A stretch of 38,978 bases of DNA from a virus (taxonomy: Duplodnaviria > Heunggongvirae > Uroviricota > Caudoviricetes): IMG/VR virus record IMGVR_UViG_2713896784_000029; one strand, written 5' to 3'. The position numbers and the translations under genes are program-made. Each line of letters begins with the position of its first letter. The stretch's first letter is position 1. Below are positions 1-36,633 of the stretch, in pieces. Below the pieces are notes generated by a model. That model ran no database searches. It was not told the DNA's origin and was given only the letters and a program-made list of their open reading frames with translations.

Positions 1-531
1 CTAACCCGCTTTAGATTCTACCGGATTTGATTGCCTACTTGTCTCGGTTTTTTCCAAAATCTCTCTGACGCAATCGTCTGGCATATCTACAATCATCAAC
101 GCAGCCAGGCGCTTCCTGCCTTCTAGTTGTAATAAATCCTGGTTTTCTTTATCCAGCAGTGTCAGAACCGTCTCTACACCTTTGCGAGCAAGGAGATTGG
201 TTAACTGTTCTCGTTCGTCTTTCGTAAGGAATGAAAGCATCTGTGTAAGTTGATCTCCCTTATCACCAGAACAACCAAAATTACCACAAATACCAACATC
301 GTTTGGTGATTCACCCTTGCCCTCTTTAAGCCACTCAAGACTAACTCCTTCACTTTCAGAAATTCGTATAAGGATACTTTCTCTGGGGGCTGGTTGTGTT
401 TGTCCTCCCTTGAAATAGCTGTTTAATGTGTTGATATTGATTCCCCACGCTCTGGCAGCTGCACTTCTTGAAGGGTAGCGCTTTGTAAGCATTCCAATAC
501 GTTCAATAACAGGTTCTTTTCCCTGCGACAT
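1..531 (-). CDS. prophage repressor, XRE/Cro-C1-type HTH
   Basis: Leftward ORF divergent from ner; HTH-like segment SRSAAARAWGININTLNSYFKG; start at minus-strand ATG 531 preferred because of upstream GAGGT RBS (ORF-track start 606 has none). Stop codon is at window bases 1-3. Confidence 0.6.
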   Translation of the reverse strand: MSQGKEPVIERIGMLTKRYPSRSAAARAWGININTLNSYFKGGQTQPAPRESILIRISESEGVSLEWLKEGKGESPNDVGICGNFGCSGDKGDQLTQMLSFLTKDEREQLTNLLARKGVETVLTLLDKENQDLLQLEGRKRLAALMIVDMPDDCVREILEKTETSRQSNPVESKAG

Positions 532-611
532 AAAGATACCTCTTGGTGCTTTTCTAAGGAAAGGTTTCTTTCTATTTATCCAATTGAAAAATAAGGATAA
601 AAGCAAAAATT

Positions 612-721: not shown

Positions 722-970
722 ATGAGTAGAAGAGAAGTTTCAGATCACGATTGGCCGCCTGAAATCATCAAGGCGCGCTTACACATGGCTGGCTTATCAC
801 TGCGCTCTTTATCTTTAAAGGCTGGTTACAGCAGGGATTCGCTGAAAAGCGTATTACGTACTCCTTGCCGACCGTATCAGCAAATAATTGCTGATGCTCT
901 TGGGGTATCGCCTGAAGAAATCTGGCCCAGTAGATACCAGGTTAAGAGCTATATGAGAAAGGCGTCATGA
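722..970 (+). CDS. ner: Ner-like DNA-binding protein (early transcription regulator)
   Basis: 82 aa; motif QIIADALGVSPEEIWPSRYQ matches the Mu Ner/Nlp C-terminal pattern; RBS AGGAAG; first gene of rightward early operon. Confidence 0.85.
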   Translation: MSRREVSDHDWPPEIIKARLHMAGLSLRSLSLKAGYSRDSLKSVLRTPCRPYQQIIADALGVSPEEIWPSRYQVKSYMRKAS

Positions 971-7842: not shown

Positions 7843-8394
7843 ATGATGATTTTACAACCCATGGGGCGAAAAGGCCGTGCACCCGCTCATGTTCGTGCAT
7901 GGACACCTGAAGAAGATGCGCTGCTGATTGCGCTTTATCCATCCACCCCGGTTAAGGATATTGCTGTCAGGGTAAAAAGAAGTTACTGGGGTGTATATAA
8001 CCGGATTGTTTTATTGCGCGGTACTTACCCGGAGTTGCTCAAATGCAAACGTCCCAGATTTAAACATGATGAAGATAAATTTATCCGAAAAAATGCCAGA
8101 ACAATGACCGGTAAGCAAATAGGAGAATATCTGGGGCGAGACCGGGACTCTGTCCACAATCGGGCGCGATATATTGGCGTAAGCATGAAAAAATACGGAG
8201 AGTTGCTGCCCTTCACCCGCATACCTGACGATGATGTTCGTCTTATTCGTGAATTACGGGATGCTGAATCACCACGGCGTCTTACCTTTAGGGAAATCGG
8301 CGAGAAATTTGAATTATCCGAGGGCACGGTGAGTTTTATTTATCACCGTCGTCGGACTGCCGAAGATGTTGTATTACGGGAGTTAATGCCATGA
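7843..8394 (+). CDS. hypothetical DNA-binding protein with three HTH-like repeats
   Basis: AGGGGG RBS; three internally similar ~50-aa segments each ending in a basic HTH-like helix (WGVYNRIVLLRG / VHNRARYIGV / VSFIYHRRR). Confidence 0.45.
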   Translation: MMILQPMGRKGRAPAHVRAWTPEEDALLIALYPSTPVKDIAVRVKRSYWGVYNRIVLLRGTYPELLKCKRPRFKHDEDKFIRKNARTMTGKQIGEYLGRDRDSVHNRARYIGVSMKKYGELLPFTRIPDDDVRLIRELRDAESPRRLTFREIGEKFELSEGTVSFIYHRRRTAEDVVLRELMP

Positions 8395-8860: not shown

Positions 8861-9148
8861 ATGGAAAAAGAAATCAAATTTGCGCCTAAAGATATCGACG
8901 AAGAACTGGCTAAAATCGGCATGCTTGAGCGTATGCGGGACATTATCGAATATGCGATAAAAGAAAATCTTGCAGCCAGAGAAGCCCTTTTGATAATGGA
9001 GCGGGAGATTAACCTGATTAAGGATGCTGTATCTCTGGATAATAAAATAGCCCGCGAGGAATACGTTCGCCGCAGGCTCGGTGTTGATGGTTCAGCAATT
9101 CTTACATCTGAACATTATGCAAAAATCTTTAATCTTTTTTCGCGGTAA
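8861..9148 (+). CDS. hypothetical protein (AT-rich)
   Basis: ATG 8861 (MEKEIKFAPKD); helical, charged; 3' end overlaps a convergent minus-strand ORF by 20 bp. Confidence 0.45.
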   Translation: MEKEIKFAPKDIDEELAKIGMLERMRDIIEYAIKENLAAREALLIMEREINLIKDAVSLDNKIAREEYVRRRLGVDGSAILTSEHYAKIFNLFSR

Positions 9149-9368
9149 TGCCCATGCAGGCTCGGATATTGTCGAAATGCCAGTTTGTATTAATATATGA
9201 GCCATCCTGGTGTCCCTCTGCGCTTTGGGGTGCGGCACTTTTTTGAGCAATATTGATAATATGTGTTGCCTCCTCACGGGAAATAACCCCCTTATCGAAC
9301 AGGGTTACCATAAGATTTCCAGCCATTGTGAATGCGGCAACATCAAGGGCATTTTTTATATCTGACAT
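9129..9368 (-). CDS. hypothetical protein on opposite strand (AT-rich)
   Basis: 79-aa minus-strand ORF with RBS AAAAGGAAAAATCT-ATG; only convincing antisense-oriented gene in the early operon; AT-rich relative to flanks. Confidence 0.45.
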   Translation of the reverse strand: MSDIKNALDVAAFTMAGNLMVTLFDKGVISREEATHIINIAQKSAAPQSAEGHQDGSYINTNWHFDNIRACMGITAKKD

Positions 9369-9396: not shown

Positions 9397-9424
9397 GGCG
9401 GTGCGGTAACACCGCCCATTTTTT
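9397..9424 (+). terminator. intrinsic terminator-like hairpin upstream of gemA
   Basis: GGCGGTG-CGGTAA-CACCGCC stem-loop followed by CATTTTTTAT. Confidence 0.45.
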
Positions 9425-9438
9425 ATGGAGCCACGATA

Positions 9439-9951
9439 ATGAATCGCGCTTCCCTGATTACCTTAATACATGTCGCAAAACGCGATCTACAGCTTGACCG
9501 GGAGACCTATATATCCGCGCTGCTGGCAGCCACCGGCAAAACCAGCTGCCGGGATATGTCACCGGATGAGTTATCCCGCGTGCTGGATGTTTTCAAAAAA
9601 CGCGGTTTTAAAGTGCGCCAGAAGCCGGTTAACCGGGCCTTAAAACCGGGTACGGTGACCGCCAAAATTCGTGCCATCTGGAAGGTAATGCACCGGCAGG
9701 GCTTTATCTCTGATGGTGCGGAAACCGCCCTTAACCGCTGGGTGAAATCGCAGACGGCCGCGCAGAACGGCGGCGAAGGTGTGGCAAACTGGCAGTGGCT
9801 GGAGCAACACCCCGCCCTGGCCTCAGATGTGCTGGAGCGTCTCAAGCGATGGCACCGCCGCAAAATGCTGGCCGCGATGGGAATGCCCGAACGCACGCTG
9901 ATGGGGTATGACGCCGTTTGCAGGCAGTATGAAAAATCACTTCCCCGTTAA
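9439..9951 (+). CDS. gemA: GemA-like regulatory protein (Mu gp16 family)
   Basis: 170 aa; N-terminus LITLIHVAKRDLQLDRETYISAL fits the GemA/gp16 family pattern; position before Mor/C; GGAG RBS. Confidence 0.7.
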   Translation: MNRASLITLIHVAKRDLQLDRETYISALLAATGKTSCRDMSPDELSRVLDVFKKRGFKVRQKPVNRALKPGTVTAKIRAIWKVMHRQGFISDGAETALNRWVKSQTAAQNGGEGVANWQWLEQHPALASDVLERLKRWHRRKMLAAMGMPERTLMGYDAVCRQYEKSLPR

Positions 9952-9955
9952 CCCC

Positions 9956-9989
9956 AAATCCCGCCACAACGCGGGATTTTTATTTTAAA
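9956..9989 (+). terminator. intrinsic terminator after gemA
   Basis: 9-bp stem AAATCCCGC / GCGGGATTT with 6-nt loop, followed by TTATTTTAAA. Confidence 0.6.
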
Positions 9990-10020
9990 CTTACCGGGAA
10001 CGCGAGAACCGGAGGCTGAT

Positions 10021-10446
10021 ATGACAGAAACTCAGATGAGCATGTTTGGTGGTGACAGTGAGCAACTGCACGCCCTTATCGACCGCCTTGATGACATCCC
10101 TGATGATGTTCTCAAAAAGAACTGGCCGCGGACCCTGTCTGAACTGGTTGAAGTCACCGGCGCAGAACTTCAGCGTCAGGGGATTGAGCCGGTACTGGCC
10201 GGTAAACTGGCACGCAAGGTGGCTGCGGCTCAGGCAGCCTATATGGGCGGACGGGGTTATTACCTGCCGGTCGGGGAATCTCTCTTTGCCGAGCTGCGAA
10301 ACAATGAGATATTTTCGCGCTGGGACCGGGGCGAGAAAATTGAATCCCTTCGCCGCCATTACCGGATGTCAGAAACCCAGATTTATACCGTCATACGTGA
10401 ACAGCGCCGTCTGCATCTGGCAAGAACGCAACCGCCACTTTTCTGA
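10021..10446 (+). CDS. Mor/C-family transcription activator
   Basis: 141 aa; C-terminal HTH region (SETQIYTVIREQRRLHL) and overall layout like Mu Mor/C; sits between gemA and lysis genes; RBS GGAGG. Confidence 0.7.
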   Translation: MTETQMSMFGGDSEQLHALIDRLDDIPDDVLKKNWPRTLSELVEVTGAELQRQGIEPVLAGKLARKVAAAQAAYMGGRGYYLPVGESLFAELRNNEIFSRWDRGEKIESLRRHYRMSETQIYTVIREQRRLHLARTQPPLF

Positions 10447-10517
10447 TATTCCGCAAAGCCTGCCGCCTTTCCTTCACCGTTACGCTGACTCAGAGAACAT
10501 CATGAGACAGCGTAACA

Positions 10518-11018
10518 ATGCCAAAACTCCCCGCACCACTGCGTAAAAAGCTGATTGCCCTTGTTCTGGCCGGTGCCGGGACGTTCACGATTGCCACGCA
10601 TTACACCGGTTACTGGGAAGGGAAAGAAAACTCCACGTATATCGATCCCACCGGTACACCCACCATCTGTTACGGCCATACCGGCCCGGATGTGAAACCG
10701 GGTATGACCCTGACGGATGAAGAATGTCTGAAACTGCTGGAAAAGGACATGAAATGGGCCTTTGCGGCCATTGATCGGCGTGTTCAGGTGCCGCTTACCC
10801 GTGGTCAGACGGTGGCGCTGGCTTCGTGGATCTTCTGGGCCGGTGAAACGAACTTTCGCAACTCCACGCTTCTGCGCCTGATCAATGCCGGACAGATGCC
10901 CGCGTCCTGTAAGCAGTATATCCGCTGGATTTATTCAAAGGGGGTGAAACTTCCCGGCCTTGAGGCCCGCCGTTCGGCGGATGAATGGTTATGTCGCTAC
11001 GACTTGCCGAAAGTCTGA
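10518..11018 (+). CDS. SAR endolysin (T4-lysozyme-like, glycoside hydrolase family 24)
   Basis: N-terminal hydrophobic signal-anchor KKLIALVLAGAGTFTIATHY followed by E-x8-D-x5-T catalytic signature (WEGKENSTYIDPTGTPT). Confidence 0.85.
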   Translation: MPKLPAPLRKKLIALVLAGAGTFTIATHYTGYWEGKENSTYIDPTGTPTICYGHTGPDVKPGMTLTDEECLKLLEKDMKWAFAAIDRRVQVPLTRGQTVALASWIFWAGETNFRNSTLLRLINAGQMPASCKQYIRWIYSKGVKLPGLEARRSADEWLCRYDLPKV

Positions 11019-18244: not shown

Positions 18245-18420
18245 TTGTTTAAGGTATGCAAATGCATTACCTTACCCCCTTCAGGCGCGTGTCGTGATTT
18301 TCTAACCTGAATTTAACGGGCTTTAAAATCTGCGTGAAGCGCCTTTGTATTTTTCCCCTGAAAGCACTTCCTGAAATCCCGCAAAACCCGCCCTGAAAAT
18401 TCCCGGCTTATGCTGCCGGA

Positions 18421-34447: not shown

Positions 34448-36487
34448 ATGACGTCCAAATGGGTTCAACTATCATCAATGCCCGGAAACTTTACTGTTAA
34501 AGTTTCCGGTGGTACAGCGGCATTTCTTGAGGCTCCCTTTCCTCCGGCCGAAACAAAAGGAGGAATGACATTTGCTGACTGTCTCATCAGTTTTAATACA
34601 CGGGATTGCCTGTGGGTAAGGCCAGTATCCGGTGATCCGAGTGTGGAAATTACCGGAGCGGGTATTGGTGCGGTCATTCCGTTAAGTGCTGATGTTGCCG
34701 GTACTGCTGAACCGTCAGACTGGGATAATGCTGAAACACATACCCGTCCGTCAGGAAATGAAACTGCTTCCAGCTCCCCTTCCTGGTATTACGTGGTGGT
34801 TCTTGCTGGTCAGTCAAACGGTATGGCTTACGGTGAAGGTCTGCCACTGCCGGAGACATATGACCGCCCCGAACCGCGTATTATGCAGTTAGCCCGTCGC
34901 AGTACAGTCACGCCGGGAGGTAAAGCCTGTCAGTATAACGACATCATTCTGGCCGACCACTGTCTGCATGATGTGCAGGATATGAGTGGAAAAAATCACC
35001 CGAAAGCGGATGTGGCTAAAGGGCAATATGGCACCGTGGGTCAGGGGCTTCACATTGCCAAAAAACTGCTGCCGTTTATTCCGGCAGATGCGGGGATTCT
35101 GCTGGTTCCCTGCTGCCGTGGTGGTTCTGCATTCACGGCGGGTGCTGACGGCACGTACAGTGACAGCACGGGTGCTTCAGAGGACTCAGCCCGCTGGGGT
35201 GTGGATAAGCCGCTGTATAAGGACTTAATCAGCCGGACAAAAGCGGCACTGGCGAAGAACCCGAAAAACCGCCTGCTTGCTGTGGTGTGGATGCAGGGCG
35301 AGTTTGATATTGATGCGAAGCCGACGGAGCATTCCGCGCTGTTTCTGGCGATGGTGGAAAAATTCCGCGCAGACCTGGCTGAACAGGCGGAACAGTGTAC
35401 CGGTGGCAGTGCTGCTGGCGTTCCGTGGATTTGTGGCGATACCACGTATTTCTGGAAACAGAAAAATGAACCGGCATACCAGGCAATCTATGGCGGCTAC
35501 AAAAACAAAACAGATAAAAACATTCATTTCGTTCCATTAATGACAGATGAAAATGACGCGAATGTACCCACCAACAATCCGGCAGAAGACCCGGATATTG
35601 AATCCATTGGTTATTACGGCTCAACGTGGCGTAACAGTGCCGCCACCTGGACATCTGCGGACCGGGCCAGCCATTTCAGTTCATGGGCACGTCGTGGGAT
35701 TATTTCCGACCGTCTGGCCACGGCAGTTCTGACTCATGCGGGGCGAACCACAGTAAAAGCCGATGTTCCATCTTCTGAAACTGAAGCACCAGTGCCGTCA
35801 CCTTCAGAAACTGAAGCAGTAACCACAACACTGCTGTCTTATCGTGTCAGTGAGTCAGAAGGAAATCTGAAAGCCCAGGGCTGGGAGCCGGCTGGCGGTA
35901 AAGCTGAAATTATCAGTGATGCAGGAGGCACAGGTGGTAAGGCAATGAAACTGACCAAGGAAACAGGTAAATCATCCTGGTATCTGGATCATGATGCCGG
36001 TACTGGTGCTGAACTGCTGAAAAATGGTGGTTTAATCAGTTGTCGTTTTAAAGTACCTGGCGACCTGGTGGCAAACCAGTATGTCATGGGGCTTTACTGG
36101 CCGGTTTCCTCTCTGCCGCAGGGTGTCACCCTGACAGGGGATGCAGGGAATAATCTGCTGGCATCGTTCTACATCCAGACAGACGCAAAAGACCTGAATG
36201 TGATGTACCACAATGCAAAAGTGGCAACAAATAACCAGAAACTGGGAACCTTTGGTGCATTTGATAATGAATGGCATACGCTGGCCTTCCGTTTTGCAGG
36301 AAATAACAGCCTTCAGGTTATTCCGGTTATTGATGGTCAGGATGGTGCCGCGTTTACCCTGACGCAGTCACCAGTAGGAACTTTCCCGGTGGACAAACTC
36401 CGCGTAACGGATATCACAAAAAATGCAACTTACCCGGTGCTGATTGACAGCATTGTGGTGGAAGTGAAAAAAGCGGTAACAGAATAA
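34448..36487 (+). CDS. cargo SASA/SGNH-type carbohydrate O-acetylesterase (prophage NanS-p-like) with C-terminal beta-rich domain
   Basis: 679 aa; VVVLAGQSNGMAYGEG (Ser motif) and VVWMQGEFD (WxQGE.D) match the sialate O-acetylesterase family signature; SETEA-SETEA linker then ~230-aa beta-rich domain; located between gin and com where Mu has no gene. Confidence 0.6.
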   Translation: MTSKWVQLSSMPGNFTVKVSGGTAAFLEAPFPPAETKGGMTFADCLISFNTRDCLWVRPVSGDPSVEITGAGIGAVIPLSADVAGTAEPSDWDNAETHTRPSGNETASSSPSWYYVVVLAGQSNGMAYGEGLPLPETYDRPEPRIMQLARRSTVTPGGKACQYNDIILADHCLHDVQDMSGKNHPKADVAKGQYGTVGQGLHIAKKLLPFIPADAGILLVPCCRGGSAFTAGADGTYSDSTGASEDSARWGVDKPLYKDLISRTKAALAKNPKNRLLAVVWMQGEFDIDAKPTEHSALFLAMVEKFRADLAEQAEQCTGGSAAGVPWICGDTTYFWKQKNEPAYQAIYGGYKNKTDKNIHFVPLMTDENDANVPTNNPAEDPDIESIGYYGSTWRNSAATWTSADRASHFSSWARRGIISDRLATAVLTHAGRTTVKADVPSSETEAPVPSPSETEAVTTTLLSYRVSESEGNLKAQGWEPAGGKAEIISDAGGTGGKAMKLTKETGKSSWYLDHDAGTGAELLKNGGLISCRFKVPGDLVANQYVMGLYWPVSSLPQGVTLTGDAGNNLLASFYIQTDAKDLNVMYHNAKVATNNQKLGTFGAFDNEWHTLAFRFAGNNSLQVIPVIDGQDGAAFTLTQSPVGTFPVDKLRVTDITKNATYPVLIDSIVVEVKKAVTE

Positions 36488-36493
36488 AAAAAT

Positions 36494-36520
36494 CCCGCCG
36501 GTCATGATATGGCTGGCGGG
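36494..36520. terminator. hairpin after esterase gene
   Basis: CCCGCC...GGCGGG stem with A-run upstream (T-run on the minus strand), 7 bp after the esterase stop. Confidence 0.35.
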
Positions 36521-36633
36521 AGCTACCTAACCCATAAAGGAAAATAAAAATACTCCCGAAGGAGTGGTTATCAGTCGCTTCGATGTTTTTACCCGATAAC
36601 GAATTATGTAGTCAATATCAAAGGTAAGGTTAT

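Follow-up and report, generated by a model that had tools for sequence, protein, structure and literature searches.

A likely terminator-promoter cassette precedes the single Mor/C-family activator gene of a Mu-like prophage of Escherichia coli

The three-stage cascade of bacteriophage Mu, in which Mor is made early, C in the middle period and the late genes last, is the textbook model for the timing of gene expression in phages of this kind. A stretch of 38,978 nucleotides (nt), IMG/VR record IMGVR_UViG_2713896784_000029 (hereafter the window, meaning that whole stretch), raises the question of how such a programme is run with fewer parts. The window is a 39-kb Mu-like prophage of E. coli, and a preliminary description recognized in it only one gene of the Mor/C activator family, lying just downstream of a gemA gene that is bracketed by two terminator-like hairpins. 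Here, we report that one member of the family is present, that it is C-like and stands in the gene order expected of C, and that both hairpins and a -10-like hexamer behind the second one are conserved in related loci. Our preferred reading, to which we give a probability of roughly two in three, is that this phage follows a two-step programme with a single C-type activator and a conserved terminator-promoter cassette before its gene. The elements on which the argument turns are as follows.

9397..9426, plus strand: hairpin 1 with T-run, GGCGGTG-N6-CACCGCC, 12 nt upstream of the gemA start codon
9439..9951, plus strand: gemA (gp16 family, PF06252), 44% identity to Mu GemA
9956..9989, plus strand: hairpin 2 with T-run, AAATCCCGC-cacaac-GCGGGATTT then TTATTTTAAA, intrinsic-terminator-like, its left arm being the AATCCCGC box of the Mu lys promoter (Plys)
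9986..9991, plus strand: predicted -10 hexamer TAAACT (P_C), positional homologue of TATAAT, TGTATACT or TATACT in relatives, with a start predicted near 9998
10010..10014, plus strand: GGAGG, ribosome-binding site of the activator gene as read from the sequence, 6 nt before the ATG at 10021
10021..10446, plus strand: Mor/C-family activator gene, C-like (PF08765), the sole family member in the window
10518..11018, plus strand: endolysin gene (lys), product 39% identical to Mu gp22, with lysozyme annotations in RefSeq relatives

The first matter to settle is whether a second activator hides among the small unassigned open reading frames (ORFs) of the early region, as the preliminary description had allowed. 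Six-frame phmmer and hmmsearch searches of stop-to-stop segments, with Mu Mor, Mu C, the window activator and a three-sequence profile as queries, scored only the segment 9952-10443, the next-best segment having an E value of at least 0.1. When an eight-member Mor/C alignment was compared by hhalign with all segments of at least 45 amino acids, the same segment came out with a probability of 100% and the next best with one of 11.9%. Pfam and PHROGs scans of the early ORFs gave Kil, Gam, gp11, a D5-like/SANT-Myb regulator and families of unknown function, with no Mor among them. Therefore, the six-frame, profile and profile-profile searches agree on one recognizable activator, and the search of the small early ORFs yielded no second member. 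A three-stage cascade as in Mu calls for two paralogous Mor/C genes parted by a middle promoter, and here there is one copy. In other respects the early genes remain syntenic with those of Mu (B, gam, gp11-14, gemA, C, lys, gp25-27), and the Mu segment mor-Pm-gp18-gp20 is absent from the window. Of the two possibilities entertained earlier for the early-to-late cascade, condensation is thus borne out by a C-like activator upstream of lys and the loss of the mor-Pm-gp18-gp20 segment, whereas a concealed second activator is rejected on the strength of the sequence, profile and profile-profile searches.

The activator gene has 141 codons and matches PF08765 with E = 3.1e-32 and 111.2 bits (cut-off 24.9), residues 34-140 covering positions 2-107 of the 107-position profile. 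The protein is 39% identical to Mu C (105 bits) and 28% to Mu Mor (52 bits); Mor and C of Mu are themselves 37% identical to each other. By its closer sequence match to C and its place directly upstream of lys, the activator is of the C subtype. It retains the GG..Y.P linker, in which G76, G77, Y81 and P83 are invariant in an eight-sequence alignment that includes Mor and C. Sliding-clamp-binding motifs, Qx[D/E][L/M]F at the N-terminus and QPDLF at the C-terminus, have been reported for the Mor/MuC family (PMC12867686), and residues 5-9 (QMSMF) and 137-141 (QPPLF) of the window protein are near matches with one deviation each. Members of the family bind an imperfect dyad centered at -43.5 and activate sigma-70 promoters in which the -35 is missing; for the window protein, the promoters predicted below are candidate targets. 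The gene lies 69 nt beyond gemA, and lys starts 71 nt downstream of it.

In order to judge how common a single activator is, we collected related loci using a four-sequence alignment as query, an eight-sequence one being too diverse. The collection comprised 15 loci from one-genome-per-species contigs (Edwardsiella, Kluyvera, Erwinia, several Pasteurellaceae and a Lysobacteraceae), 80 from IMG/VR, and several annotated phages and E. coli genomes; individual loci are designated by L numbers below. A search for homologous proteins had yielded almost nothing but relatives with at least 80% identity. Copies per locus were counted by six-frame Mor/C profile searches, counting by tblastn having been dropped as insensitive (it missed Mor in D108 and SfMu). 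Two Mor/C copies were found in 24 of 104 loci, all of them Mu-type with mor overlapping gemA. The other 80, the window included, carry one copy; clustered at 90% protein identity they make 21 groups, and in 67 of these 80 loci the upstream sequence extends for 2.5 kb or more. Throughout the surveyed loci gemA almost always adjoins the activator gene. Judged from these sequences, a single activator is the norm outside the Mu genus and two paralogues are the exception. The framing of the preliminary description, which took the two activators of Mu as its yardstick, is accurate for Mu-type loci but not as a general rule. In the Mannheimia Mu-like phages 3927AP2, phiMhaMu2 and SuMu, lys directly follows mor and there are no middle genes (PMC4553209). 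The condensed-cascade reading is therefore right but not new, the single-activator layout being already in the literature. What is modestly new is the conserved terminator-promoter cassette before the activator gene and its likeness to the late-promoter box.

Both hairpins flanking gemA consist of a G+C-rich stem-loop followed by a U-run, as an intrinsic terminator does, the U-run of hairpin 1 not being conserved in relatives. A terminator consensus scan of the window reported both of them, with 21 sites overall against 16.5 +/- 3.9 in shuffled sequences. As the pattern is not enriched, a match to it proves nothing by itself, and the case for both hairpins rests on conservation, which marks them as real elements at the coordinates listed above. 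The stem-loop of hairpin 2 (9956-9979) has nine pairs and the U-run TTTTTATTTT; it folds at -15.6 kcal/mol, with z = -2.5 relative to shuffles. In enterobacterial single-activator loci it belongs to a conserved cassette, in which the dyad ATCCCGC-N6-GCGGGAT is followed by a T-run and, 7-8 nt from the end of the stem, by a -10-like hexamer. The loops of 20 distinct elements vary almost everywhere, whereas seven core pairs are near-invariant, with 94% of cells paired; the stem changes among them amount to one compensatory A-U to U-A replacement and a few G-U pairs. The cassette is retained next to activators that are 43-100% identical, despite its variable loops and flanks.

Hairpin 2 also stays with the activator gene when other genes part the activator from gemA (L039 and L049), and the element is doubled around inserted genes in L012 (9387 and 9930), L058 (2996 and 3550) and L066 (5376 and 5928). 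It seems to act as a module boundary or recombination site. The idea that hairpin 2 is a terminator is thus sustained as far as its terminator-like form goes, but it is not merely a terminator, as it overlaps a conserved -10-like element, and the combination is likely a cassette of terminator and promoter. At the far end of the window, a gene for a SASA-esterase/DUF6645 protein of 679 amino acids (34448-36487, plus strand) is inserted between gin and mom, and directly after it, at 36490-36524, there is a hairpin, AAATCCCGCC..GGCGGGA, with the same left arm as hairpin 2.

The gap of 31 nt between the hairpin 2 element and the activator gene, noted from the outset, spans 9990-10020. The -10-like hexamer that overlaps the end of the element is TATAAT in L007 and L066-68, TGTATACT with an extended -10 in L008-12 and L061-64, TATACT in L058 and TAAACT in the window and its E. 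coli relatives. Two E. coli types, that of the window and that of L022, are identical over hairpin 2 and TTATTTTAAACTT and have unrelated leaders downstream. Conservation of TTATTTTAAACTT while the leader diverges points to TAAACT as the functional -10, with a predicted start near 9998 and a 23-nt leader that would carry the ribosome-binding site. In L010, L045 and L072 the left arm or the whole hairpin has been lost, and the T-run and -10 are kept. Two other arrangements were considered and rejected. The dyad of hairpin 2 does not fit a site of the type found at the Mu middle promoter Pm, centered at -43.5: its center at 9967.5 lies near -30 with TAAACT as the -10, and no conserved -10 was found about 32 nt downstream of the dyad center, where a Pm-type placement would require one. 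TACCGG (9992-9997), as a -10 of late type, is not conserved in the L022 type.

Two promoters of late type are predicted in the window.

10443..10486, plus strand: predicted late promoter of lys, box CTGATATTCCGCAAAGCCTGCC, 16 nt, TACGCT, the positional equivalent of Mu Plys
18371..18414, plus strand: predicted late promoter of protease gene I (Mu-like_Pro protease), box CTGAAATCCCGCAAAACCCGCC, 16 nt, TATGCT

The arrangement they define, the box CTGAWATYCCGCAAARCCYGCC-N16-TAYGCT (a 22-mer), has these two nearly identical matches in the window where none is expected, and a search of the window for more late promoters with the 22-nt box (counterparts of PP or Pmom, for instance) gave none. The box of the lys promoter is conserved in the L022 type, with a variable spacer. 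The -10 of the second promoter ends only 6 nt before the protease ATG, which would mean a leaderless mRNA or a different start codon. In an Erwinia tracheiphila relative (L011, 10526-10600), the lys reading frame opens with tandem CCCCAAAAG(C) units.

Mu-type promoters that depend on C have AATCCC at -38..-33, and the lys promoters of Mu and relatives align at CC(A/G)(T/G)AATCCC, about 20 nt, TAT(C/T)CT. Mu Plys is CCATAATCCCGC, in which AATCCCGC occupies -38..-31, and the left arm of hairpin 2 is this same octamer, placed at -39/-38 in L007, L008, L011, L012 and L068. In the window it is at -41..-34. The box at the late promoters of this phage has, however, diverged, and there are variants without the hairpin. 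The pattern A[AT]TC[CA]C-N19-23-TAnnnT is matched by both the activator and the lys promoters in L007, L008, L012, L058/60 and L068, against a chance expectation of 0.4-1.2 matches per locus; in L068 their sequences are CATAAAATCCCGCCA and CATAATCCCCGCCA. The resemblance suggests a late, activator-dependent promoter for the activator gene itself and, if so, positive autoregulation. Mu itself offers a parallel. A predicted terminator after mor lies within the annotated, Mor-activated middle promoter Pm, whose Mor-binding dyad has been placed at -51 to -36 (PMC4287176). By our reading of the sequence this dyad would coincide with the hairpin after mor, which sets a precedent for one and the same element acting as terminator and as activator site.

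We infer termination, promoter activity and self-activation alike from sequence, and together they would work as follows. The terminator would stop most transcription coming from the early promoter and from the gemA unit, and the lethal late activator would stay off in the lysogen. The gem operon of Mu is reported to be expressed by itself in lysogens (cited in PMC3820752), and if the same holds for gemA here, the strong hairpin 2 would prevent transcription of that unit from entering the activator gene. Once induction has occurred, activator would come from read-through, from the promoter within the cassette or from both, and would then turn on the lys and I late promoters. There would thus be two steps (early, late) where Mu has three (early, Mor; middle, C; late). 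Given that the left arm matches the late-promoter box and stands at a similar distance from the -10, the activator may in addition act on its own promoter through AATCCCGC and stimulate it, a self-latching switch that would replace the Mor/Pm stage. Taken one step further, the terminator could itself be a switch in the enterobacterial single-activator phages: molecules made by read-through would bind the terminator DNA and fire the promoter within it, and this positive feedback would stand in for the Mor/Pm stage. We rate this, like self-activation as such, as possible but less likely than not.

Several observations tell against the two-step programme with a self-activating cassette. The window has a weak -10, TAAACT, whose distance from the box exceeds that in Mu Plys by 3 nt. 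The late-promoter box of the window is diverged (CCGCAAARCC at -42..-33, or ATYCCGC 7 bp further upstream) and out of register with the hairpin arm. Since L010, L045 and L072 keep the T-run and -10 in the absence of the left arm or hairpin, the box can be dispensed with. An activator should be unnecessary in relatives with TGnTATACT, where the -10 is extended. An RNA hairpin, a DNA-binding palindrome and a recombination boundary would account equally for stem invariance with one compensatory change. Lastly, the single activator of Pasteurellaceae relatives is preceded by an ordinary sigma-70-like promoter that has no late box.

In one alternative the activator is supplied by read-through alone, hairpin 2 being a leaky terminator of the early and gemA transcripts and TAAACT no promoter but part of the context of the U-tract. 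The -10 of the window fits the consensus at four of six positions, the best -35 (GCCACA) at three of six, and the promoter scan did not report it. In L055 the hairpin has neither T-run nor good -10, and in Shewanella MuM16-1 gemA and the single activator gene overlap and there is no intergenic element. Set against this, near-consensus -10s (TATAAT, TGnTATACT) occupy the same position in many relatives and persist after loss of the hairpin (L010, L045 and L072), and TTATTTTAAACTT is common to two E. coli types with differing leaders. We therefore regard read-through as the sole source of activator as unlikely.

It is less probable still that a middle step has been kept through a regulator unrelated to Mor, either GemA or the 183-amino-acid early protein encoded at 7843-8394 (plus strand), acting on the activator promoter. 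What speaks for the early protein is that it matches phrog_323 ('transcriptional regulator, D5-like') with E = 1.5e-57, shows weak helix-turn-helix matches and is annotated by PGAP as SANT/Myb-like DNA-binding; its gene is absent from the Mu gene order at this position. For GemA, there is the near-constant adjacency of its gene to that of the activator. Homologues of the 7843-8394 protein, however, occur in many Mu-type loci with Mor plus C and are missing from most other single-activator lineages, and with this distribution the protein does not track the single-activator state. Nor does any binding motif connect it to 9940-10020.

The palindrome ATCCCGC-N6-GCGGGAT could alternatively be an operator, at which a dimer of the activator or of a repressor sits over the -35 and spacer and represses, giving negative feedback or lysogenic silencing. 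The stem sequence is invariant across distant relatives beyond what pairing demands, the dyad center about 30 nt upstream of the predicted start is a repressing position, and a synthetic promoter has been repressed by C bound to an overlapping symmetric site (PMC2582627). The reported C consensus, TTAT-N5-6-ATAA, is nevertheless unlike the palindrome, and hairpin-less variants exist. No motif is held in common with the early operator region either: no 8- or 9-mers are common to that region (560-760) and the DNA upstream of gemA, the activator gene and lys. We give an operator only a slight chance. That both hairpins are chance inverted repeats without function is hardly credible even though the terminator scan is not enriched over shuffles and hairpin 1 folds no better than they do, because the hairpins fill the only two non-coding gaps flanking gemA and keep their position and sequence in many loci that have diverged elsewhere.

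Hairpin 1 calls for a different description from hairpin 2. Its stem-loop (9397-9416, GGCGGTG-cggtaa-CACCGCC) has seven pairs, six of them G-C, with the tail CATTTTTTAT, and its folding is unremarkable (z = -0.8 versus shuffles). The stem is found upstream of gemA in 13 distinct contexts, Mu and 12 others, with one compensatory change (GGCGGCG/TGCCGCC, in L023). In Mu, GGCGGTG-N6-CACCGCC lies about 20 nt upstream of gemA, within the region annotated as the gem 'semi-early' promoter. A genuine T-run behind it is seen in the window type only; Mu has CCCTTTCC there. As the T-run is limited to the lineage of the window, termination is probably not the conserved or ancestral role of hairpin 1, which may nonetheless terminate incoming early transcription in that lineage. 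Its earlier designation as a terminator thus applies to the window lineage and not elsewhere, and the description that suits the element best is that of a conserved left boundary to the gemA module, as in Mu. The gene itself is securely gemA, as first proposed, matching PF06252 with E = 3.7e-28 and 99.3 bits (cut-off 27).

To the left of hairpin 1 the DNA is unrelated between loci and usually includes the beginning of a small divergent minus-strand gene, which in the window is the following.

9129..9368, minus strand: small gene of 79 amino acids divergent from gemA, phrog_32893 (E = 9.3e-40), PGAP-annotated in E. coli JE86-ST05

In relatives of O157 type hairpin 1 and the divergent gene are both missing, and gemA and the ORF upstream of it overlap. 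A third terminator-like hairpin, CTGCGCTTTGGGGTGCGG then CACTTTTTTG, is located at 9218-9241 (plus strand), inside and antisense to the divergent gene, and could halt early transcription ahead of a collision with it. Mu has an unannotated minus-strand ORF of 88 amino acids at AF083977 7896-8162 (L001:897-1163) that matches phrog_8747 with E = 6.6e-60, whereas the annotated plus-strand Mu_54 (7960-8127) that overlaps it matches no PHROG; the Mu annotation at Mu_54 may be on the wrong strand. A BLASTP comparison of the minus-strand ORF of the window with that of Mu was not significant, and the link between them through PHROG profiles is weak.

The window, taken as a whole, opens with two genes.

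1-606, minus strand: repressor-like gene, first gene of the window
722-970: ner, after the repressor-like gene

These are followed by transposase genes A and B, the early ORFs, gemA, the Mor/C-family gene, lys, and head and tail genes, with gin, a large esterase-like ORF and mom at the right end. Identity to the Mu proteins is 48% for B, 54% for Gam, 68% for gp11, 53% for gp12, 92% for gp13, 51% for gp14 and 44% for GemA. Just upstream of ner, at 662-701, there is a 19-nt inverted repeat containing direct repeats GATATCCGC and AATATCCGC, which is probably the Ner/repressor operator of this phage. An Rfam scan of the whole window gave nothing at gathering score. The DNA around the gemA/activator region is 98% identical to the 'inserted Mu-like phage' of two Shiga-toxin-converting phage records. 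Of 5,426 complete E. coli genomes, 231 carry the prophage, and many of these are from O157, O26, O103 or O111 strains.

Most Mu-like prophages, including this one, which is carried by many O157 and other Shiga-toxin strains, appear to use one activator. How a lethal single activator is silenced and then triggered would explain the timing of induction in these prophages, and the terminator-promoter cassette is a concrete and readily testable candidate for the control point that gates it.

Among known systems, the activator of the window is closest to Mu C, with which it shares its Pfam family, its sequence at the 39% identity given above and its place directly upstream of lys, as well as an acidic N-terminal half, a basic C-terminal half and the GG..Y.P linker; near its termini, QMSMF and QPPLF resemble the reported clamp-binding motifs. 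The predicted promoters of lys and I stand at positions equivalent to those of Mu Plys and PI and have, like them, a conserved upstream box and a -10 but no -35. The boxes themselves differ, CCATAAYCCC at Plys, PI, PP and Pmom, the late promoters of Mu, as opposed to CTGAWATYCCGCAAARCCYGCC in this phage. The C gene of Mu is the last of the Mor-dependent middle operon, whereas the activator gene here comes directly after gemA and a terminator. As at Mu Mor/Pm, the early region ends in a hairpin terminator that overlaps the promoter, here a predicted one, of the next unit. Unlike Mor, which is only 28% similar, the activator is encoded downstream of the terminator and not upstream, so that a terminated early transcript cannot supply it, and the dyad center is near -30 relative to the predicted -10 rather than at -43.5. 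Other single-activator phages (Mannheimia 3927AP2, phiMhaMu2 and SuMu, Pasteurella Pmp9, Shewanella MuM16-1 and Pseudoalteromonas HS6) likewise have one Mor/C gene near gemA, and in those of Pasteurellaceae it is directly upstream of the lysis gene, as in the window. The Pasteurellaceae loci differ in having a sigma-70-like promoter, TTTACC-N17-TATAAT, before the activator and no ATCCCGC hairpin, and MuM16-1 differs in the absence of any such element between its genes. Finally, the gem operon of Mu (gemA-gemB/mor) has the same hairpin at its distance of about 20 nt upstream of gemA, with a small divergent minus-strand ORF further upstream, but in Mu that hairpin is without a T-run and gemA overlaps mor, whereas in the window gemA stands alone between two terminator-like elements.

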